From assembly GCA_032250835.1 (NCBI GenBank), contig JAVVEA010000020.1, positions 1 to 63,315 of the forward strand: DNA of 63,315 bases. The letters run 5' to 3'. The DNA is from a bacterium. Lineage in GTDB: Bacteria; SAR324; XYD2-FULL-50-16. The position numbers and the translations under genes were made by a program. Positions 38,841 to 49,240 of the stretch are shown in pieces (position 1 is the stretch's first letter; every line of letters starts with the position of its first letter). The notes beneath the pieces are model-generated. The model did not search any database. It worked only from the letters and a program-made list of their open reading frames with translations, and was not told the origin of the DNA.

Positions 38841-41708
38841 ATGGCGGACCTTTTGGGCTTAACCGATTTTCATGCCTGTTATTATGCCCAGGAGCTAACC
38901 CGCCGGTTCCCGTCCGATGCTCCCGAAAAGCTCACCAGCGCTTTGTTGGACGCCCAGGTGGACCTGAATCCGCACCAGATTGAGGCGGCCCTCTTCGCCT
39001 TTAAGTCCCCTTTTTCCAAGGGTTGCATCCTCGCCGACGAGGTGGGTCTGGGCAAAACCATCGAAGCGGGGATTGTTATATCCCAAAAATGGGCCGAAAA
39101 GCGCCGCCGGATCTTGATCATATGCCCCTCTTCGTTGCGCATGCAATGGAGCCAGGAACTGGCCGAGAAGTTCCACCTCGCCGCTGAAATCATCGACTCC
39201 AACCGCCTCAAGGCCCTGACCCGGACCGAACAAGCCAATCCCTTCGAACAAGACGCCGTAGTGCTCTGTTCCTTCGAGTTCGCCCGCCGCCAAGAAGCAC
39301 CTATCAGTGCCCTGCCTTGGGACTTGGTGGTGATCGACGAGGCCCACCGGCTGCGTAATGTTTATAAAAAGGACAACCGGATCGGCAAATCCATCATGCG
39401 CTCCACTGCCAGCGCGCCCAAGCTGCTCCTGACCGCCACACCGCTCCAAAACTCCTTATTGGAGCTATTCGGGCTGGTGAGTCTGGTGGACGAACATGTC
39501 TTTGGGGATGTGCGCAGTTTTAAGGCCCAATACACCAGCGGGTCGGTGGACTACGAAAATCTGCGCCGCCGGATTGCCCCCTTCTGCAAGCGTACCTTGC
39601 GCCGGGAGGTACAAGAATATGTACGCTATACCCAGCGCATCTCCTTAACCCAAGAATTCACCCCCAGCCCAAAGGAACGCGAGCTATACGAGAGCATCTC
39701 GGCCTATCTCCAACGCGAAAAGCTCTATGCCCTGCCCACCAGCCAGCGGCAGCTGATCACCCTAGTGCTGCGCAAACTGTTGGCCAGCTCCAGCTTCGCC
39801 ATCACCGGAACCCTAGAAAGCCTCGTGGCCCGGCTTGAGGACCAACTCAAGGCCAACCAACAGGTTGAGGACCTCTTTTACTCAACGTTGCTCAAAGAAG
39901 ACTACGAACCCTTTGAAGAAGACCAAGAAGCCTGGGATTTGGTGCCCTTAGACCAAATGCCCGACCCCTTAAGCTTGGAAGACAAAGCCAGTATCCAAAC
40001 AGAAGTAGAGGAATTACAGGGTTATTTGGAATTGGCCCGGTCCATCGAGCAAAACCAAAAGGGTACGGCCCTGTTGACCGCGCTTTCGAAGGCCTTCGCC
40101 AAGCTAAGCGAGCTGGGCGCACCGCAAAAGGCGCTGATCTTTACCGAATCGCGCCGGACCCAAGCCTATTTGTACCAAATGCTCGAAGAAGCGGGCTACG
40201 GTGGCGGGGTGGTGGTGTTCAACGGGCAGAACGACGACGAAAAGTCGAAAGAAATTTACCGGACCTGGAAGGAGCGCCACCAAGGAACGGATAAAATTTC
40301 GGGCAGCGCCAGTGCCGACCGCCGACAAGCTTTGGTGGACCACTTTAAGGAAAAATCACAGATCATGATCGCCACCGAGGCCGGGGCCGAGGGGGTGAAC
40401 CTTCAATTTTGTTCCTTGGTGGTCAACTACGACCTTCCCTGGAACCCCCAACGTATCGAGCAGCGCATCGGGCGCTGTCACCGGTATGGTCAGAAGTTCG
40501 ACGTGGTGGTGGTCAACTTCTTGGACCGCACCAACCAAGCGGACCAGCGGGTTTTTGAACTGCTAGACCAAAAGTTTCAGCTCTTTCAGGGGGTCTTTGG
40601 GGTTTCGGACGAGGTCTTGGGGGCCATTGAGTCGGGCGTGGACTTCGAGAAGCGGATTGTGGCCATTTACCAAAGCTGCCGCAGCGCCGAAGAAATCAAC
40701 CAAGCCTTTGACACCCTACAAAAAGACTTAGAAGAAAAAATCGCCCAGGACATGCTGCTCACCCGCAGCAACCTGTTAGAAAACTTCGACCAGTCCGTTG
40801 GCGAACGGTTCCGTTTTTCTTCAAAGCAGGCCCAGGGGCTTTTGGATCATTTTGAATCTTGGACCTGGAAGCTTACCGAGCACTTCCTTGAAGGCCAAGC
40901 CCGCTTTGGGCCGGGCCATGAATTTGAACTGGAAAGGCAGCCCTTCGACGGGTTGGTCGTTCCCTTGGGGCGCTACCGCTTGGGCAAGGGAGCCGAGGCG
41001 GCTTACCAGTACCGCCCGCACCACCCGCTGGCCCAAAAGATCTTTGAGTTGGGCCGGGACTTGCGTCCCGAGGCCGCAAGGGTTAAGTTCCAATTGACCG
41101 ATTCTGGCCTCAAGGTGAGCGCTTTGGAGCCCTGGTTGGGGCAGTCCGGGGGCCTACAGGTAGAGTTGTTGCAGGTGGACTCGGCCGAAGAAGAGGACTT
41201 TTTGCTGCTCTCGGGCTACGGGCCCGGCGGCTTGCCCATCGAACCCGAGGCCCTGGCCGGGCTGTTTTACCTGCCCGGCAATTTGAAGGGAGCGGCCCCG
41301 GAGCTGAACTTAGGCCTGCTGGTCCAGGGTATCGAAGCCGAAGAATCCCGCGTGCTGGCGCAGATTGAAGCCAAAAACAGCCGCTTTTTTGATGAAGAAA
41401 TGACCAAACTAGACGGCTGGGCCCAGGACCGCAAAGAAGGGCTAGAGATCCAGCTCGACAAGCTGGAACAGGATATTGGCCTCAAGAAAAACGAGGCCCG
41501 CCGCCTGCTGGACCTGGAAAAGAAAGTGGCCGCCCGCCGGTTGGTCAGTGAGCTAGAAAAGAAACGCGACCAACTCCGCCAAAACCTCTTCACCGCCCAA
41601 GACGAGGTCGAGGCCAAAAAGGACGAACTGTTGGATCAGGTCGAAGAACGCCTCAAGGCCCGAGTGGAGCGGAAGTTTCTGTTTCGGTTGGGGTGGGAAC
41701 TAAAGTAA
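38841..41708 (+). CDS. SNF2-family helicase associated with a type III R-M locus
   Basis: LNPHQI, LADEVGLGKT, DEAH, TATPLQN, ATEAGAEGVNLQ, YDLPWNPQRIEQRIGRCHRYGQ; coiled-coil C-terminus. Confidence 0.93.
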   Translation: MADLLGLTDFHACYYAQELTRRFPSDAPEKLTSALLDAQVDLNPHQIEAALFAFKSPFSKGCILADEVGLGKTIEAGIVISQKWAEKRRRILIICPSSLRMQWSQELAEKFHLAAEIIDSNRLKALTRTEQANPFEQDAVVLCSFEFARRQEAPISALPWDLVVIDEAHRLRNVYKKDNRIGKSIMRSTASAPKLLLTATPLQNSLLELFGLVSLVDEHVFGDVRSFKAQYTSGSVDYENLRRRIAPFCKRTLRREVQEYVRYTQRISLTQEFTPSPKERELYESISAYLQREKLYALPTSQRQLITLVLRKLLASSSFAITGTLESLVARLEDQLKANQQVEDLFYSTLLKEDYEPFEEDQEAWDLVPLDQMPDPLSLEDKASIQTEVEELQGYLELARSIEQNQKGTALLTALSKAFAKLSELGAPQKALIFTESRRTQAYLYQMLEEAGYGGGVVVFNGQNDDEKSKEIYRTWKERHQGTDKISGSASADRRQALVDHFKEKSQIMIATEAGAEGVNLQFCSLVVNYDLPWNPQRIEQRIGRCHRYGQKFDVVVVNFLDRTNQADQRVFELLDQKFQLFQGVFGVSDEVLGAIESGVDFEKRIVAIYQSCRSAEEINQAFDTLQKDLEEKIAQDMLLTRSNLLENFDQSVGERFRFSSKQAQGLLDHFESWTWKLTEHFLEGQARFGPGHEFELERQPFDGLVVPLGRYRLGKGAEAAYQYRPHHPLAQKIFELGRDLRPEAARVKFQLTDSGLKVSALEPWLGQSGGLQVELLQVDSAEEEDFLLLSGYGPGGLPIEPEALAGLFYLPGNLKGAAPELNLGLLVQGIEAEESRVLAQIEAKNSRFFDEEMTKLDGWAQDRKEGLEIQLDKLEQDIGLKKNEARRLLDLEKKVAARRLVSELEKKRDQLRQNLFTAQDEVEAKKDELLDQVEERLKARVERKFLFRLGWELK

Positions 41709-41758
41709 GTTAACTTTATTTGATATATCGATATAATATACTATTTCATGCAGCACCA

Positions 41759-42496
41759 ATGACCAAATTGAGCCAGCCCTCGACTTTCGGACGGATTGTC
41801 AAATCCCCAGCTCTTTTTCTAAGTCTCGGAACGGGTTATCTGTTCGTAGTCGGAGTAATGTCCTTTAGCGAGCGGATGAGGAATTTAAATATCCCTCAGA
41901 CCATGTTTCAGATGCCTTTCGACCAGTTAGTATACCTTGGGTTTGATGCAGTTGTTTTAGGTTTTCGAGGAACCATCGGATGGAGCTTTGGAGTTGCGTC
42001 AATTTTATTAGGTACGGCAAGTGTATTACGCGGACTTATAAACTTTACAATTAAAAAATCAACCAAGAGCCACTTTTGCCTGAAGAAAGTATCCTTCAAA
42101 ATCGGATGGGTTGCATTTTTACTGATTTATTCTATTTTAGCTGGAGTTGAGCATGGGCGTTATTTTGCCCGCAAAATATTGAAAACTACTGAGGAAAACG
42201 GGAATCAAATTCGTTTATATTACGGGCAAAGATCACCCAACGAGCCAATTACCGGGAGCCTTTTGGTCGCAGACAATCAGAAGATTGCTTTTCGCTCAAA
42301 AGGCCGCACATTCGTAGTGCCCTACCCAGAGCGGGTTGAACTTGTCGGTGTTGAACCAACCCCCTCTGAGTGCCTAGAGCCAATTCCAAATTGGTTGGAA
42401 ATGGCGACATTTAAGCCAATGAAGGTGCCGGAACATTGCGAAAATACGGAAGATATTGAGGAAGGGGAAAAGGCAATGCCAGAACCGGGGTTCTAA
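41759..42496 (+). CDS. Hypothetical membrane protein (about 3 TM), AT-rich cargo gene
   Basis: Open frame with hydrophobic segments; markedly lower GC than flanks. Confidence 0.6.
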   Translation: MTKLSQPSTFGRIVKSPALFLSLGTGYLFVVGVMSFSERMRNLNIPQTMFQMPFDQLVYLGFDAVVLGFRGTIGWSFGVASILLGTASVLRGLINFTIKKSTKSHFCLKKVSFKIGWVAFLLIYSILAGVEHGRYFARKILKTTEENGNQIRLYYGQRSPNEPITGSLLVADNQKIAFRSKGRTFVVPYPERVELVGVEPTPSECLEPIPNWLEMATFKPMKVPEHCENTEDIEEGEKAMPEPGF

Positions 42497-42594
42497 CAAA
42501 GCCTCCGAGGGATAAGTTAAAGTACTCGGGGAGTCGAGTCAAGGGAAGTCAACGGGGTAGAACCTAAAATCTATCTCAAATTCAAAGGGAAGCA

Positions 42595-44259
42595 TTGAAA
42601 CCGAAGAAGGGACAGAAGTTGGAGTTGACCTGGGTGGGCAAGGGCGAGCGGCCCCGGTTGGAGCCAAGGATATTGGTGGAAGAGCCGGACTTGTCTTATG
42701 GGGACAAGGGGCAGGGGAACCTGTTGATCCAGGGGGACAACCTCTTAGCACTCAAGGCGCTGGAATCGGAGTACGCCGGTAAGGTCAAGTGCATCTACAT
42801 CGACCCGCCCTACAACACCGGCAGCGCCTTTGAGCATTATGACGACGGCCTAGAGCACAGCCAGTGGCTGAACCTGATGAAGCCTCGGTTGGAAATCTTG
42901 CGCAACCTGCTTTCGGAAGACGGGAGCATTTGGGTAACGCTAGATCACAATGAACATGCGTACCTGAAGGTGATGCTGGATGAGGTTTTTGGCCGTGTAA
43001 ATTTCAAAGCGAATATTACTTGGCAAAAGAAATATAGCGTTAGTAATAATTTTAAAGGAATAGCCTCAATTTGTGACTACATCCTGGTGTACTCGAAAGG
43101 CGATGCATTTCAAAATAACCTTCTGCCCCGCTCTCAAGAATCTGAATCTCGGTATCAAAATCCAGATAGCGATCCACGAGGTCCGTGGAAGGCAGTCGAC
43201 TATTTGAATCAAGCCACGCCACAAAAGCGACCAAATCTTTGTTATGACATTACTAATGAGTTTACAGGCGAGGTAATTAAGAATACCAAGAAAGCGTGGA
43301 AATATGAAAAGTCGGTGCATTTAAAACATGTCCAAGAAAACAAAATTTGGTGGGGACGCGATGGTAAAAATAGTGTCCCGGCTTTAAAGCTTTTCTTATC
43401 AGAGGTCCGCGATGGTATGACCCCACATAACTGGTGGCCACATACAGAGGTTGGTCATACAGATGAAGCAAAAAAAGAAGGAATTAAAATTTTCGGGCAT
43501 GGCGCAATATTTGATACACCAAAACCCGAGCGATTAATCGAACGAGTGCTACTGCTCGCCACCAACCCCAACGACCTAGTCCTCGACAGCTTCCTGGGTT
43601 CCGGCACCACCGCTGCCGTGGCGCAGAAGATGGGGCGGCGGTGGATCGGGGTGGAGTTGGGCGAACATGCGCAGACCCACTGTTTGCCGCGCCTCAAGAA
43701 GGTGGTGGACGGGCAAGACCCCGGCGGGATCAGCAAGGCGGTGGACTGGAAAGGTGGCGGCGGGTTCCGCTATTACCGCTTGGCCCCGAGCCTGCTCAAG
43801 AAAGACGACGAAGGGAACTGGGTGATCAACCCCCAATACAACGCCGAAATGCTGGCTGCCGCCATGGCCAAGCAGGAGGGCTACCAGTTCGAACCCGCCC
43901 CGGACTGCTTCTGGAAACAGGGGCACCTAGAGGGCAAGTCCTTCATCTTCACCACCACCAACTACCTAAGCTTCGACCAAGCCCAACACTTCGAGGATTC
44001 CTTGGGCCCCGACGAAACCCTAATGGTCTGCTGCCAAGCCTTCGAGCCCGGCCTAGAGTCTTTAAAAAAAGTGACGCTGCGAAAAATCCCCCAAGCCGTC
44101 TTGGGCCGCTGCGAATTCGACCGCGACGACTACAGCCTCAACATCGTCAACCTACCGGACTTAACTGAGGAGGAAGGAGAACCCGAAGCCCCGGCTTCGC
44201 CGAAGAAACCCAAATCCAAGAACTCTTCGGACGAAGACCCCCAACCCACTTTATTTTAA
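42595..44259 (+). CDS. mod: Type III R-M DNA methyltransferase (Mod)
   Basis: KLELTW.GK, GDNLLAL, IYIDPPYNTG, TPKPERL, LDSFLGSGTT (beta-class N6-adenine MTase), GGGFRYY. Confidence 0.93.
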   Translation: MKPKKGQKLELTWVGKGERPRLEPRILVEEPDLSYGDKGQGNLLIQGDNLLALKALESEYAGKVKCIYIDPPYNTGSAFEHYDDGLEHSQWLNLMKPRLEILRNLLSEDGSIWVTLDHNEHAYLKVMLDEVFGRVNFKANITWQKKYSVSNNFKGIASICDYILVYSKGDAFQNNLLPRSQESESRYQNPDSDPRGPWKAVDYLNQATPQKRPNLCYDITNEFTGEVIKNTKKAWKYEKSVHLKHVQENKIWWGRDGKNSVPALKLFLSEVRDGMTPHNWWPHTEVGHTDEAKKEGIKIFGHGAIFDTPKPERLIERVLLLATNPNDLVLDSFLGSGTTAAVAQKMGRRWIGVELGEHAQTHCLPRLKKVVDGQDPGGISKAVDWKGGGGFRYYRLAPSLLKKDDEGNWVINPQYNAEMLAAAMAKQEGYQFEPAPDCFWKQGHLEGKSFIFTTTNYLSFDQAQHFEDSLGPDETLMVCCQAFEPGLESLKKVTLRKIPQAVLGRCEFDRDDYSLNIVNLPDLTEEEGEPEAPASPKKPKSKNSSDEDPQPTLF

Positions 44260-44273
44260 CTAAGAGAGACCAA

Positions 44274-45158
44274 ATGACTGCACAGCAAATTGCCCAAAAC
44301 CTTTTTGATCTTGATAAATCGTGCCGCGACGAACTTCATCGTAATGTAATCTCGGATGAAAATGACTACACTTCAACCTTTTGTGCCGTTTTAAGGCATG
44401 GAAACTATGGTCCAGGGATGGGGCAAAAACTTTCCCGTGTATATGAAAATAAATTTGGTTGTGATGCAATGTTGGTGTTTCGGGGGGCCAATCAGGTGAA
44501 AGTAGGGGTGTGGGAAGCAAAATATCCTCGCCTCACCCAAAAGACAAATAATAATTATAAGTACTCTTGGGACTATGCCAGCGTTGATAGATCTAAAATT
44601 CCCCACCAGGCTATCTCCCACTTCACGCACCAACTGCAACGGCAAGCAAAAGCTCACGCTCTGGGTTTTGCGGCATGGGAAATGTTTTATAATGAACATG
44701 CGGTTGGCACTACCTACCGAAATTTTGACCCTCAAGGTTCCAGTTGCGTTTGGTGGCAAGACGCGATTTCCTATCAGCAAAACCAGTTTAGTCAAACCAG
44801 CCTTTGGAACTCAGATGAGTTAAACAATATGCTGTCCGGCTCCGGTACGAACCTTTTTCACATAGTGTTTGATTTGCTGACCTGCAAGCAGGGTGAGCCA
44901 TTTGCTCTATCACGAGACAGTCAAAAGTTGGCCGTAAGACCTAGTTCTGGGCGTTTAGATGAAGCCATGTCTCGGGTTTCGGGTGAAGACCGGGAAGTGT
45001 TTATGACAGAACTAGAAAAGGAACTCATTTTGCCAATCCCGACCCGTCGTTTTGATGCCGAAGCCAGTAAAGAAATGAACAAATTCATTCATGAGCAGGG
45101 CATCCACCGGTACACCTATATCGACTTGGGACCTGAGTTTAAATTCGAAGAGGCATAG
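44274..45158 (+). CDS. Hypothetical protein, putative PD-(D/E)xK nuclease
   Basis: ENDYT...YENKFGCDAMLVF...VWEAK pattern; AT-rich; abuts the res start. Confidence 0.55.
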   Translation: MTAQQIAQNLFDLDKSCRDELHRNVISDENDYTSTFCAVLRHGNYGPGMGQKLSRVYENKFGCDAMLVFRGANQVKVGVWEAKYPRLTQKTNNNYKYSWDYASVDRSKIPHQAISHFTHQLQRQAKAHALGFAAWEMFYNEHAVGTTYRNFDPQGSSCVWWQDAISYQQNQFSQTSLWNSDELNNMLSGSGTNLFHIVFDLLTCKQGEPFALSRDSQKLAVRPSSGRLDEAMSRVSGEDREVFMTELEKELILPIPTRRFDAEASKEMNKFIHEQGIHRYTYIDLGPEFKFEEA

Positions 45159-47885
45159 ATGACCCCCAAGTACAAAGAAGTAGAAGAAAAAATCAGCCGG
45201 AACGTGGCCGACATTTCGGCGCGGATGGGGCTTTGGGGGCGGTTGCCTCAGATTGAGAGTCTGCATTTGTTGGAGCAAGCCCTAGAAAAGCTTTCGCTGA
45301 CCAAAGAGCATGACTTGGCCGCTGAGTTGGCGGCGGTGCAAGAGGTGATGCCCGGCGTCAAAGACTTTGAGCGGGATTTCCCCAACCTCTGTTTTGCCCT
45401 GGCCACCGGCGTGGGCAAGACGCGGTTGATGGGGGCGTTTGTGGCCTATCTGTACATCTTCAAGCGGGTGCGCAACTTCTTGATCTTGGCCCCGAACCTG
45501 ACCATCTACCGCAAGCTGAAAGAGGAGTTCAGCAACCCGAGCCACCCCAAATATGTCTTGGGCGGCTTGAGCCACTTCGTGCAGAAGCGCCCGCGCATCA
45601 TCGACGGGGAGTCTTACGAACAGACCCATATGAACACGCTGGAGGACTACCAAGCGGGCTTTGGGCAGGCGAACCTGTATATCTTCAACGTAGATAAGAT
45701 CAAGCGCGACGAAAAAAGCGGGCGCATCCGGCGCTTTAATGAATATTTGGGTCAGGACTTTTTTGGCTACCTCGCCGAGTTGGAAGACTTGGTGGTGATC
45801 ATGGACGAGTCGCACCACTACCGCGCCGAAAAGTCCCTGGCGGCGATCAACGAACTGAAGCCCATTTTGGGCTTGGAACTGACCGCCACGCCCCGAGTGG
45901 AGTCCCAAAACCGGGATTTTAAGAATGTGGCCTATCAGTTCAGCCTCAAAAACGCGCTGGACATGGGGTACGTTAAACGGCCCGCCGTGGTCACCAAAGG
46001 CGACTTGGACCCTTTGGCGATGACGCCCGAAGAGTTGGACCGCCTTAAGCTATTAGACGGCATCCGCCTGCACCGAAACACCGCCGCCGAACTGCTGCGC
46101 TACCACAAACAAACGGGCCGCAAGCTGGTGCGCCCCTTTGTGTTGGTGGTGGCCAAAGACACCGGCCACGCCGCCGAAATCCGCGAATACCTAGAGTCCA
46201 AGGACTTCTTTGAAGGGGACTATGAAGGCAAGGTGTTAGAGATCCACAGCGCCCAACGGGGCAGCGAGAAGGACGAGAACGTGGCCAAGCTGGTGGAGCT
46301 GGAGCACAAAGACGATGTGGAGATTGTGGTGCATGTGAACATGCTCAAAGAAGGCTGGGACGTGACCAACCTGTATACCATCATCCCCCTACGGGCCAGC
46401 GTTTCGGAAACCTTGACCCAGCAAACTATGGGCCGGGGCCTTCGGGTTCCTTATGGAAAACAGGTCGGTGATGCGGCGGTGGACCGTTTGGCCATCGTGG
46501 CCCACGATAAATACCAAGCCCTTTTGGACGCCGCCAACCAAGAAGACTCGCTGTTCAAGAAAGAGAACATCATCGACTTGGACCTAGAAGACAGCACCGA
46601 ACGCCAAACGCTGAGCACGCCCAGCGCCCTGAACGCTGCCTTAGAAGCCGAGGAGCAGCGCGCCGAAGCCGAAGAAGACCCCCAAAAGCGCCAAAAAGCG
46701 ATCAGCCGGGTGGCCGTCAAGCGGGCTTTTGTCCAGACCCTGACCACCGCCTCACGCCAGCCGCAAGTCAAGAGCGTTCAGGACACCCGCCGCGCCGAGG
46801 TTAAAACAAAGATCCAGCAAGAAGCCAAGAACCAACTGACCCAAACCGGCCAGATTGGCTTCATGAGCGACCTGAGCGATACAGAGGTAGAAGAGGTCTA
46901 CTTGGAGGTAGTCCAAGAGTTTGAGCAAAAGTTTATCGAAATCCCCCGGATCACCATCTTCCCCAGCGGGAACATCAAGACTTGGTTCGATGATTTTGAC
47001 CTAGAACTGGCCGACTATGCGCCCCAGCCGCTGCCCGAAAATCTTTGGATCAAGTACTTGGCGGATCAGGAAACCAAGGAGGTCTTGGAGACCGTCGGCG
47101 GCCTGACCATTGATCGACTCGACCGGATTTTGGTGACCACCCTGCTCGATGTGCCCCAGGTGGAATACCCCCGGGACAAAAAGCTGCTGTTCAAGCTGGC
47201 CCAGCAGGCCCTAATAAAGATCGGCCTGGGGCTGCGCGAGAGCTACGCCAACGAGCAAGAGCGGGGCGCGGCCATGCAAAACGTGGTTTTTTATTACCGC
47301 CGCGAAATCTGCAACCGCATCGCCGAGGAGTTGACCGCCCACTTCCACCAAGAAGCGCCCAAGCAATTTGAGGTGCAGGTGCTGCCCTTTAAAGAGATTT
47401 TGCCGCACCACTTCACCTTGCCCAGCGACGGGAAACGGGTGAAATATAGCCAGTGGTCGGGCAGTACCGCCGAGATGAAGAAATGCCTGTTCACGGGCTT
47501 TAAAAAGGCCTGCCATTTGGAATATGTGTTCCATTCGCGCCCCGAGTTCCGCTTGGCTAGCTTGATGGAAGAGGAGGCCGAGGTGCTCAAGTGGCTGCGC
47601 CCGGCGAACGGGCAGTTTAATATTGTCTGGGGCCCCGCCAAAAGAACCTACGTCCCCGACTTCGTCGCCGAGACGGCCAATATGCGGTACTTGATCGAGG
47701 TCAAACGGGCCGACCAAATCGCCACCGACGAGGTCCAACAAAAAAAGGACGCCGCCGAAGCCTACTGCCAACAAGCCAGCGACTACGCCAAAGAAACCGG
47801 CAGGGCCCCCTGGAAGTATGTGATCATCCCGCACGACAAATTAGAAAGCGGAGCCGGGGTCAGCTTTGGGCGGTTGGTGGGGTGA
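45159..47885 (+). CDS. res: Type III restriction endonuclease (Res)
   Basis: ATGVGKT, DESHH, TATP, MLKEGWDV.N, QTMGRGLR, C-terminal YVPDF...IEVK nuclease motif. Confidence 0.93.
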   Translation: MTPKYKEVEEKISRNVADISARMGLWGRLPQIESLHLLEQALEKLSLTKEHDLAAELAAVQEVMPGVKDFERDFPNLCFALATGVGKTRLMGAFVAYLYIFKRVRNFLILAPNLTIYRKLKEEFSNPSHPKYVLGGLSHFVQKRPRIIDGESYEQTHMNTLEDYQAGFGQANLYIFNVDKIKRDEKSGRIRRFNEYLGQDFFGYLAELEDLVVIMDESHHYRAEKSLAAINELKPILGLELTATPRVESQNRDFKNVAYQFSLKNALDMGYVKRPAVVTKGDLDPLAMTPEELDRLKLLDGIRLHRNTAAELLRYHKQTGRKLVRPFVLVVAKDTGHAAEIREYLESKDFFEGDYEGKVLEIHSAQRGSEKDENVAKLVELEHKDDVEIVVHVNMLKEGWDVTNLYTIIPLRASVSETLTQQTMGRGLRVPYGKQVGDAAVDRLAIVAHDKYQALLDAANQEDSLFKKENIIDLDLEDSTERQTLSTPSALNAALEAEEQRAEAEEDPQKRQKAISRVAVKRAFVQTLTTASRQPQVKSVQDTRRAEVKTKIQQEAKNQLTQTGQIGFMSDLSDTEVEEVYLEVVQEFEQKFIEIPRITIFPSGNIKTWFDDFDLELADYAPQPLPENLWIKYLADQETKEVLETVGGLTIDRLDRILVTTLLDVPQVEYPRDKKLLFKLAQQALIKIGLGLRESYANEQERGAAMQNVVFYYRREICNRIAEELTAHFHQEAPKQFEVQVLPFKEILPHHFTLPSDGKRVKYSQWSGSTAEMKKCLFTGFKKACHLEYVFHSRPEFRLASLMEEEAEVLKWLRPANGQFNIVWGPAKRTYVPDFVAETANMRYLIEVKRADQIATDEVQQKKDAAEAYCQQASDYAKETGRAPWKYVIIPHDKLESGAGVSFGRLVG

Positions 47886-47997
47886 TGCCTTTTGGGCAGA
47901 GGACTTCCGGAGCCCCGCCGAAAACCCGCAAGGCTTGAGTCGACTAGGCCGAAGTACCGCTGGGGAGCGGGAAGCTGGTTGGCCAGGGGGAATCTTC

Positions 47998-48026
47998 TTG
48001 ACGGGCCCTTTGGTAATGGCGAGAAT
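47998..48026 (+). promoter_or_regulatory. Candidate sigma-70 promoter for the small TGA-containing gene
   Basis: TTGACG-N17-GAGAAT, 27 nt before the ATG at 48054. Confidence 0.4.
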
Positions 48027-48053
48027 ATGCGGAAATTTAAATATAGGAGTCCT

Positions 48054-48338
48054 ATGTCTGCCTTTTCTGAAGAAACTTACCAGGGCCGCTTCATCAGCAT
48101 TGTCAGTGCCGAACGCGCCGCCAAGGGAGCCTGAGGCCCCCCGGTAGACATCGTGTATGTCGAAAACGGCCAGGGAGTGCCGCACAAGCTCCTGATGCTC
48201 GATTGCAAAGTCCCCAAAGACTCCGCCAACCCCTACGAATTAGAGCAGGGGCAAAAGGTCGAGGTTTGTTACAAGAAAATCTTGAACCACTTGGTCTGGG
48301 TCCGCCCCGCCGTCAGCCACGGGTACGAGAACAGCTAA
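48054..48338 (+). CDS. Candidate 94-aa selenoprotein (in-frame TGA at 48132-48134); alternatively a nonsense pseudogene
   Basis: AGGAG RBS, ATG 48054, single in-frame TGA at codon 27, frame continues to TAA 48338; SECIS-like hairpin follows the TGA. Confidence 0.6.
48135..48171 (+). other. Bacterial SECIS-like stem-loop
   Basis: Upper stem GACAT/ATGTC (48147-48161) with loop CGTGT, 17 nt from the UGA; possible lower GGCC/GGCC pairing. Confidence 0.5.
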
Positions 48339-49240
48339 CCCCCCGCATTCCGCTTGAGCCCCTCTAGCCCGGCCCGTTTGAGGGGGCTGGTGATTTTTAG
48401 TTGGTCGAATTCGGCGGCGGTCCAACTGTGGACCCGCTCGAAGCTCAAGCCCCGCCACTTCTCGGCGAAGGCGTAGGGGCTGTCTGGGGGTTGGTCGGGC
48501 ACCTGGGCGTTGTAGGGGCAGCAGTCTTGGCAGCGGTCGCAGCCGAAGAGCTGGCCCTGGGTGGCTTTGGCTTGGGTGCTGGAAAAGGGGCCTTGGTGCT
48601 CGATGGTTAGGTAGCTGATGCAAAGGTTGGCGTCCACCATGCCTTGGGGCTTGATCGCGCTGTTGGGGCAAAAGTCCAGGCACAACCCACAGTCCCCGCA
48701 GCCCGCCGAGTCCACCGGCCCGCTAGATTCCAATTCCAAGTTGCAGACAATTTCCGCCAAAAAGACGTAAGAGCCCCATTCAGGGTGGATCAGCAGGCTG
48801 TTTTTGCCGATAAACCCCAGCCCTGCCTTCTGGGCCAAAATCTTTTCAGGCAAGGGGGCGGAGTCCACAAAGACCCGGCCTTCAAAGCCCTCAAACTCTT
48901 GGGCCAGTAGCGCCAAGGCGGGTTTGAGGCGTTTTTTGATCACTTCGTGATAGTCCCGGCCCCAGGCGTAGCGGCTGATCAGTCGCCCAGGCTCGGTGAA
49001 GCCTTCTGGCGCGGCGGTTTTGTAGGGTACGGCCAGGCAGATGATCGAGCGGGCCCCTGGCTGGATAGCCAAGGGGCGGCGGCGCAGCTCCAGGTTGCGC
49101 TCCATATAGCCCATGCCTGCCTGATAGCCCCGCTCTAACCAAGAGGCGAACCAATCGCCCAGTTCCAAATCGGCTGCGCCGACAAACCCAACGGAGCTAA
49201 AGCCCAGGCGGCCTAGAATCTCTTTGATCTTACCTTGCAT
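48335..49240 (-). CDS. queG: tRNA epoxyqueuosine(34) reductase QueG
   Basis: ISRYAWGRDYH, VDSAP..EK, GKNSLLI...GSYVFL, CGDCGLCLDFCP, CISYLTIE, FGCDRCQDCCPYN. Confidence 0.95.
   Translation of the reverse strand: MQGKIKEILGRLGFSSVGFVGAADLELGDWFASWLERGYQAGMGYMERNLELRRRPLAIQPGARSIICLAVPYKTAAPEGFTEPGRLISRYAWGRDYHEVIKKRLKPALALLAQEFEGFEGRVFVDSAPLPEKILAQKAGLGFIGKNSLLIHPEWGSYVFLAEIVCNLELESSGPVDSAGCGDCGLCLDFCPNSAIKPQGMVDANLCISYLTIEHQGPFSSTQAKATQGQLFGCDRCQDCCPYNAQVPDQPPDSPYAFAEKWRGLSFERVHSWTAAEFDQLKITSPLKRAGLEGLKRNAGG

Follow-up and report, generated by a model that had tools for sequence, protein, structure and literature searches.

The window considered here is a stretch of 63,315 nucleotides (nt) from a bacterium of the SAR324 lineage (GenBank assembly GCA_032250835.1, contig JAVVEA010000020.1, positions 1 to 63,315 of the forward strand). 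Positions 48054-48338 of its forward strand are interpreted, with a probability of roughly 0.85, as a functional and apparently monocistronic gene for a small cytoplasmic selenoprotein, in which the UGA at codon 27 is decoded as selenocysteine (Sec). An earlier note, made from the sequence alone, had suggested such a gene from two open reading frame (ORF) fragments at 47892-48134 and 48153-48338. According to the window sequence and the ORF list, these fragments do share one frame, and their sole separator is the TGA at 48132-48134. Translation of this TGA as U yields a product of 94 amino acids (aa) with U27, starting at the ATG at 48054 and ending at the TAA at 48336-48338, and reproduces exactly the protein quoted in the earlier note.

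The signals that had been described around this reading frame were all located in the window. A Shine-Dalgarno-like AGGAG (48045-48049) lies 4 nt ahead of the ATG, and a candidate sigma-70-like promoter, TTGACG-N17-GAGAAT (47998-48026, plus strand), agrees with the consensus at 9 of 12 positions; it is a consensus match only, and one such site was found in 47700-48600 versus 0.1 expected from shuffled sequences. Downstream of the TGA, the hairpin GACAU-CGUGU-AUGUC (48147-48161, plus strand) resembles a bacterial selenocysteine insertion sequence (bSECIS), with its stem at 48147-48151/48157-48161 and its loop at 48152-48156, 17 nt from the UGA. The TAA shares 2 nt with the stop of a convergent ORF (48335-49240) that matches QueG_DUF1730 and Fer4_16 and represents queG. 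A terminator-like hairpin with a T-run (48369-48400, plus strand) lies 31 nt past the TAA within the 3' end of queG; taken alone it is not significant, as one was found versus 1.6 expected in shuffles. A search of 47800-48500 against Rfam at E <= 10 returned nothing but one sX5 row at E = 5.7.

Orthologues of this gene were identified by a six-frame search of 41 related genomes including the window's own, which gave five convincing matches, namely the window's own genome (G000) and the SAR324 genomes G007, G010, G013, and G006, the latter four with E values from 2e-13 to 6e-5. A further match in genome G027 (E = 0.0175, three TGAs) was dropped as spurious because its translation shows no similarity. 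According to profile searches, the gene occurs in five genomes, out of 24 in the order and 88 in the phylum; among the high-quality genomes the proportion is 5 of 35. All holders belong to one family (5 of its 19 genomes) and are distributed over four genera including the window's own. The TGA is found at the aligned codon in every holder, with an ATG 26-27 codons ahead of it and with the conserved domain continuing in the same frame. In the alignment of the five full-length members, invariant columns occur on both sides of the TGA, which is embedded in the motif [G/S]-U-G-x-[P/A]-[P/S]-D-[I/L]-V. The earlier note had proposed looking for homologues with TGA or Cys at codon 27 and conservation on both sides; the TGA part of this proposal was borne out in all five genomes. 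Shine-Dalgarno-like motifs ahead of the ATG are present as GAGGAG in G007 and AGGAG in G013; the motif is weaker in G006, and none is obvious in G010.

The pattern of substitutions indicates translation on both sides of the TGA. Between G013 and G006, two species of one genus, seven of the 26 codons before the TGA differ, six of them synonymously and one non-synonymously. Codons 28-33, which lead from the TGA to the first GTG, are conserved as protein including G28 and D32, and G013 and G006 differ there at third positions only, as seen in the alignment and not separately tallied. An independent sequence is provided by the 405-nt contig X2 from a sediment metagenome, which spans 48034-48340 with about 92% identity and 23 differences without gaps, four of these being unlisted and presumably located near the contig ends. 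Third codon positions account for 16 of the 19 listed differences (binomial P = 7e-6), and 16 of the 17 altered codons still encode the same amino acid, among them all six upstream of the TGA. No listed difference falls on 48132-48134, which lie 98 nt inside the contig, so that the TGA is retained in an independent metagenome contig; the earlier note had asked for a check of the TGA in reads. Within the 80 nt from 48108 to 48187, which contain the TGA and the hairpin, X2 has no substitution at all versus 4.95 expected (P about 0.007).

A soil-metagenome contig of 895 nt (run X1) matches the window only at 48110-48166, a piece of 57 nt comprising the TGA and the hairpin, with unrelated flanks. 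It may stem from a more distant member in which only the recoding signal is conserved at the nucleotide level. The X1 contigs reach the TGA only near their ends or in this 57-nt piece and were not used for assessing TGA conservation. An ORF of 114 aa on the other strand (47841-48185, minus strand) runs across the promoter region and the gene's first half; as the third-position pattern of substitutions fits the plus frame, it is probably spurious.

These data bear on two readings of the locus that dispense with recoding. A pseudogene in decay, stopped by a nonsense mutation, or a non-coding stretch whose frame is open by chance, would agree with the lack of any family annotation and with the patchy spread over 5 of 19 genomes of the family. 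Such a history would hardly leave the same TGA in four genera with a strong synonymous bias on both sides of it, and the alternative frames are closed by 1-12 stops each; by its substitution pattern and frame data, the locus effectively refutes this reading. The other reading assumes two coupled genes, a 26-aa peptide ending at the TGA and a separate downstream ORF starting for example at GTG 48153, with the hairpin as a coupling or regulatory structure. An in-frame GTG is indeed present at codon 34 in four of five orthologues, and only the fragments past the TGA appear in gene calls and in GenBank (database proteins P0002, P0003, P0005, P0006, and P0009-P0012). However, the sole in-frame start-type codon past the TGA in G010 is a TTG at codon 82 of 88, and the conserved domain of this orthologue would thus be translatable only via read-through. 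In addition, codons 28-33 would be untranslated in a two-gene arrangement despite their conservation as protein, GTG 48153 is not preceded by a Shine-Dalgarno-like motif, all five genomes have the ATG at a constant 26-27 codons ahead of the TGA, and the predicted protein fold (see below) requires a strand encoded ahead of the TGA. The synonymous bias, the retention of the TGA, and the lack of a start codon in G010 thus exclude a pseudogene and make two separate genes very unlikely.

Decoding of UGA as Sec would require a complete Sec machinery, and this is encoded in the holder genomes. SelA was detected in G000 with 420.7 bits, above its curated cut-off, and selA is present in 18 of the 19 genomes of the family. 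SelB and SelD scored above curated cut-offs in all five holders, and tRNA-Sec scored above the Rfam threshold in the same five, with ARAGORN assigning tRNA-SeC with the anticodon TCA. Thus, the selA, selB, selD, and tRNA-Sec genes that the earlier note had wanted confirmed were all found in the genome. Furthermore, selD has an in-frame TGA in all five genomes (G000:C33:93520-94443, minus strand, as well as G006, G007, G010, and G013), and by this feature it is the selenoprotein form. A general reassignment of TGA in this lineage is contradicted by the fact that TGA terminates many ORFs, including 17 of the 43 window ORFs with at least 200 aa; TGA is also the stop codon of the orthologues in G007 and G010.

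The hairpin downstream of the TGA was compared among the five TGA regions in an ungapped codon-register alignment. It occupies the same alignment columns in all orthologues, with a stem of 5-7 base pairs (bp) that is shortest in the window gene (5 bp). The respective sequences are CGACAU-CGUGU-AUGUCG in G007, UGAUAU-CGUGC-AUAUCA in G013, CUGAUAU-CGUGA-AUAUCAG in G006, and CCGGAU-UUAGUAUUU-AUCCGG in G010, whose stem lacks two inner pairs and has three additional outer ones. Compensatory double changes occur at three pairs, including a change from C-G to U-A. Paired cells amount to 77.5% of the alignment, compared to 15-42.5% when the 3' partners are slid by one to three columns; the observed pairing was matched by 1 of 500 shuffles and the covariation score by 2 of 500. 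RNAalifold independently predicts the same helix, and the GU in the loop is invariant in all five sequences.

The hairpin forms part of the coding sequence and shares nucleotides with the codons of the conserved P-D-I/L-V motif. The residue following D-I-V is Y, H, or N, and its codon is always NAU with the AU paired in the stem. Likewise, the exchange of V for I (GUC/AUC) covaries with a synonymous Asp codon (GAC/GAU). To judge from these orthologues, the coding sequence bends to the pairing of the stem. For a given protein sequence and the local codon usage, the stem would be maintained by synonymous choice with P = 0.04-0.23 per orthologue. The product of these chances would be 1.5e-5 for five independent orthologues, which is an overstatement as there are about three independent lineages. 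The published bSECIS consensus, as given in PMC13188914, comprises a loop of 3-9 nt, a stem of 4-16 bp, a distance of 16-37 nt from UGA to loop, and a G in the first two loop positions that is often followed by G or U. Four of the five hairpins agree strictly with this consensus, having a CGUGN loop at a spacing of 17 nt. The hairpin of selD in G000 (CCGACA-GGUC-UGUCGG) has its loop 21 nt past its own UGA.

Based on these comparisons, the following mechanism is proposed. SelB and tRNA-Sec would decode UGA27 as Sec, directed by a minimal bSECIS hairpin with a stem of 5-7 bp and a small GU loop 17 nt past the UGA. The resulting product would be a cytoplasmic five-stranded barrel of the oligonucleotide/oligosaccharide-binding (OB) type with Sec in the predicted loop L12. 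Computationally, the orthologue comparisons establish a real gene that would be translated through the TGA in one frame, with a recoding signal and the machinery to use it, and we infer that the inserted residue is Sec.

The encoded protein had been described as resembling no recognised family, and this held in all searches. Pfam contains no family for the window protein at E <= 10, NCBIfam release 20.0 has none for any of the five members at E <= 1, and a profile search against PDB sequences returned only two toxin rows at E > 1, which are meaningless. A first word-index protein search gave no match. An exhaustive phmmer search of 1.84 billion cluster representatives retrieved five proteins at E <= 0.001. 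Four of these are fragments starting just past the TGA site, namely P0002 (from the window), P0003, P0005 (from G007), and P0006. The fifth, P0004, has 551 aa with seven repeated stretches and was rejected as a spurious repeat protein. Profile searches (four and eight matches) added P0007-P0012, resulting in 11 distinct members in all. Six members are known only as short gene calls that begin at or just past the P-D-[I/L] motif, as would be expected from a stop codon at the site; the GenBank fragments P0005 and P0009 are named 'hypothetical protein'.

The residues P54, P60, G66, Y73, and K74 do not vary in the 11-member alignment, and D32, D50, L63, and I83 are almost invariant; K75 is also invariant among the five full-length members. 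Most members are basic with isoelectric points of 8-9.4. A CxxU-type motif is absent, and there is no conserved Cys partner for Sec. The G007 and G010 proteins contain no Cys at all besides the Sec position, which excludes an intramolecular selenenylsulfide mechanism for these two.

Several observations weigh against the assignment of a selenoprotein gene. The 65-nt fold of the hairpin region has a z-score of -0.33, and 74 of 200 shuffled sequences fold at least as well. Among 5238 sampled genomic TGA sites, 1982 (38%) carry a hairpin of at least 5 bp that complies with loose bSECIS rules, and 390 (7.4%) still do so when only Watson-Crick pairs are allowed. Moreover, the G010 hairpin agrees with the published consensus only when a GUA triloop closed by an inner A-U pair is allowed. 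DNA of the gene is available from five genomes and one contig only, and these include two close pairs, leaving about three independent lineages. No neighbouring gene is conserved across all five genomes, and no function is supported by the neighbourhood. No homologue with Cys at the Sec site was found by phmmer on the 1.84 billion representatives or by the profile searches, with roughly 15 billion proteins searched in all, and none of the 11 members has Cys there. Finally, the members P0007 and P0008, which are derived from ENA, carry W at the Sec site.

Regarding the hairpin, the structure in the window taken alone is no better than chance, and the case for Sec therefore rests on the orthologue comparison. 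The SECIS-like hairpin of the earlier note thus stood in its agreement with the published consensus and in its covariation among orthologues, and did not stand as a fold of the single sequence. Regarding Cys, nearly all accepted selenoprotein families have Cys forms according to PMC13188914; the Sec/Cys-pair criterion is customary, not defining. The authors of deep-Sep themselves state in PMC12013277 that selenoproteins without Cys homologues may escape their method.

The W residues touch on a further explanation, in which the TGA is read through as a standard amino acid or is replaced by one in some members, most obviously Trp via TGG or near-cognate decoding, with the hairpin merely stimulating this process. 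The lack of a Cys form also agrees with this explanation, since no homologue shows that a chalcogen is needed at the site. P0007, however, matches the G006 protein at every other position, and the G006 DNA has TGA at this codon; the simplest explanation for the W of P0007 is translation of TGA with a table that assigns it to Trp. This suggests that P0007 and P0008 are gene calls made on short contigs under such a table, although the W of P0008 may stem from either TGA or TGG. Of the residues that the earlier note would have taken as signs of a simple nonsense mutation (Trp, Arg, or Gly at the site), Trp thus occurs in two database proteins, while TGA is found in all five genomes and in contig X2. 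Read-through as Trp is further contradicted by the presence of the complete Sec machinery and by a hairpin that agrees with the SelB-type model and whose loop has an invariant GU. Such read-through is regarded as improbable, and decoding as Sec is retained as the interpretation of the TGA.

For the structure of the product, an AlphaFold2 model was derived from a shallow alignment of eight sequences (predicted local distance difference test, pLDDT, 82.4; predicted template modelling score, pTM, 0.71). The model has strands at residues 6-17, 32-38, 43-48, 68-74, and 79-85 and short helical turns at 49-51 and 60-62. Strand 1 (residues 6-17) comes from the codons ahead of the TGA, and Sec is located between strands 1 and 2 in a region of lower confidence (mean pLDDT of 64 for residues 21-30). 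Foldseek found no match at E <= 0.001, and its top rows were OB-folds, comprising the DUF35 OB domain, single-stranded DNA-binding protein (SSB), the PAN N-domain, CusF, and cold-shock domains. VIA-align gave Z values of 8.3-8.1 to LEF-3 and SSBs, which by the tool's own caveat may mean only a common arrangement at values of about 8. The lowest root-mean-square deviation (rmsd), 2.1 Å over 67 residues, was obtained with SilF at Z 7.6, and the best matches overall were OB-folds at Z 7-8.3. An OB-fold is a closed beta-barrel of five strands in which a helix connects strands 3 and 4. The product is tentatively predicted to fold as a five-stranded OB barrel, and the small, beta-rich, OB-fold-like protein of the earlier note agrees with the model and its best structural matches.

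In the topology of OB-folds, loop L45 flanks the same binding face as loop L12. The position of Sec in the model is what we take to be L12. Y73-K74-K75 are located at the end of the predicted strand 4, from where they would enter L45. As both loops flank the same face, Sec and the Y-K-K residues probably line one site in the modelled protein.

The gene neighbourhoods differ among the holders. In the window, the gene stands alone between an upstream island of the restriction-modification type and the convergent queG. This island (38841-47885, plus strand) lies directly upstream of the selenoprotein gene and is of a restriction-modification or defence type. It encodes an SNF2-type helicase (38841-41705), an ORF without family match (41720-42493), an N6/N4 DNA methylase (42595-44256), a further ORF without family match (44274-45155), and a ResIII protein of 908 aa (45159-47885).

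In G007 (locus L024, G007:C6, 9557-12499, minus strand), the selenoprotein gene comes third on one strand, after genes for a GltD-like oxidoreductase and a rhodanese of 160 aa and ahead of a 110-aa ORF with a lipoprotein-like N-terminus. The GltD-like protein has 559 aa and is a pyridine-nucleotide-disulfide FAD/FeS oxidoreductase with a 4Fe-4S domain. This cluster may be a sulfur-related operon; a resistance-nodulation-division (RND) efflux pair (HlyD, AcrB) converges on it. In G010, the gene is preceded by a seryl-tRNA synthetase gene and followed by a 93-aa ORF and genes for a MASE10-HD protein, a rhodanese-rubrerythrin protein, and a metallo-beta-lactamase-fold protein, the latter two within 3 kb of the gene. 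G013 and G006 have a K+ channel gene upstream and genes for a protein of 437 or 427 aa without assigned family and for a MASE10-HD protein downstream. The MASE10-HD (HD-GYP-like) membrane protein is thus encoded one or two genes downstream in G010, G013, and G006, with mutual identities of 54-89% (L025 8224-9711, minus strand; L026 11876-13324, plus strand; L027 11763-13268, plus strand), and the orthologue of G000 is located on contig C38 outside the window. The small ORFs that follow the gene share no homology with one another. The notion of a rhodanese operon was reduced to a weak hint for want of a conserved neighbour.

With respect to function, it is proposed only tentatively that the lone selenol would be a ligand-binding or relay site on the predicted OB binding face next to Y73-K74-K75, and not part of a CxxU-type oxidoreductase. 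Candidate ligands are sulfane sulfur, selenium, a soft metal, or nucleic acid, each of which taken singly is a good deal less likely than the proposed site itself. The rhodanese neighbours give a weak hint at a relay of sulfane sulfur or selenium, and fold and charge give a similarly weak one at binding of nucleic acid or a soft metal. It is equally doubtful, though conceivable, that the protein is the founding member of an obligate-Sec family, a selenol-based OB binding or relay module of a class not yet represented among selenoproteins.

If this were true, an obligate-Sec OB module would not be a derivative of a thiol oxidoreductase and would be a concrete case missed by pipelines that search for Cys/Sec pairs. 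The discovery of bacterial selenoproteins has mostly been based on such pairs, and a Cys-less family would show that families of this kind exist and are missed. In addition, the OB-fold would be added to the selenoproteome, and SAR324, a widespread and largely uncultured phylum, would gain a use of selenium specific to its lineage. With its very short SECIS embedded in a conserved peptide motif, the gene would also be a compact natural case for studying the minimal requirements of SelB recruitment and the interplay of codon choice and stem.

Compared to known systems, the gene has the general organisation of canonical selenoprotein genes with an intragenic bSECIS, for which Escherichia coli fdhF is an example. 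As in these genes, a short stem closed by a small GU loop begins no more than about 10-15 nt after the UGA, and the decoding set of selA, selB, selC, and selD is present. E. coli SelB contacts G23 and U24 of the loop. The spacing from UGA to loop is 17 nt in the window gene versus 21 nt in selD of the same genome. In contrast to the canonical genes, the protein shows no relation to any selenoprotein family known so far, and the stem is minimal with 5 bp and has no evident bulged U or lower stem.

Regarding the fold, the predicted barrel resembles bacterial and mitochondrial SSB/PriB proteins, with VIA-align Z values of 8.2 to the SSB Rim1 (rmsd 3.0 over 78 residues) and 8.1 to the SSB of Streptomyces coelicolor. 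A predicted OB barrel is also shared with CusF/SilF, the periplasmic Cu(I)/Ag(I) chaperones. Sequence similarity to either group was not detected in the Pfam search and the PDB profile search. The 11-member alignment contains no conserved Met, His, or Trp for a metal site as in CusF/SilF, and no signal peptide is evident from reading the N-termini. CusF/SilF metallochaperones are characterised by a Met/His (plus Trp) metal site and a periplasmic export signal; the window protein has no such conserved residues, an N-terminus that is not signal-like, and no Pfam match. Selenoprotein A of glycine reductase (GrdA) is a small carrier-type selenoprotein. Like GrdA, the window protein is small, and with its Sec in a region of the model with lower confidence (residues 21-30) it could act as a relay or carrier and not as an enzyme by itself; unlike GrdA, to which it has no relation in sequence or fold, it lacks a CxxU-type motif and has no reductase genes nearby.

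Among the small 'hypothetical' selenoprotein families, similarities exist to DG, DW, and DF of deep-Sep and to GOS_B and GOS_C, which according to PMC13188914 are short and have a conserved TGA with a SECIS-like hairpin. The nine new deep-Sep families including DG, DW, and DF have Cys homologues according to PMC12013277, whereas none was found here by phmmer or the profile searches. The prokaryotic selenoprotein families in the table of PMC13188914, as far as available, are tied to Pfam, NCBIfam, TIGRFAM, PANTHER, or CDD accessions; without a Pfam or NCBIfam match, the protein is probably not among the families tabulated there. PMC5029168, which mentions both SAR324 and selenoproteins, lists SAR324 only in a table on horizontal gene transfer. 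A full-text search of the available literature found only unrelated papers for OB-folds together with selenoproteins and none for selenoproteins of the Lambdaproteobacteria, another name of the SAR324 phylum, and the BSepDB supplement, whose text was incomplete and which is thus a weak negative, contained no match to the family motifs or to SAR324. Set apart by the Pfam and NCBIfam models and by the portion of the PMC13188914 table available, the protein family appears to be undescribed. Its novelty would lie in the protein itself, with no Cys form, no redox partner, and a predicted OB-fold, and the mechanism by which Sec is inserted would be the canonical one.

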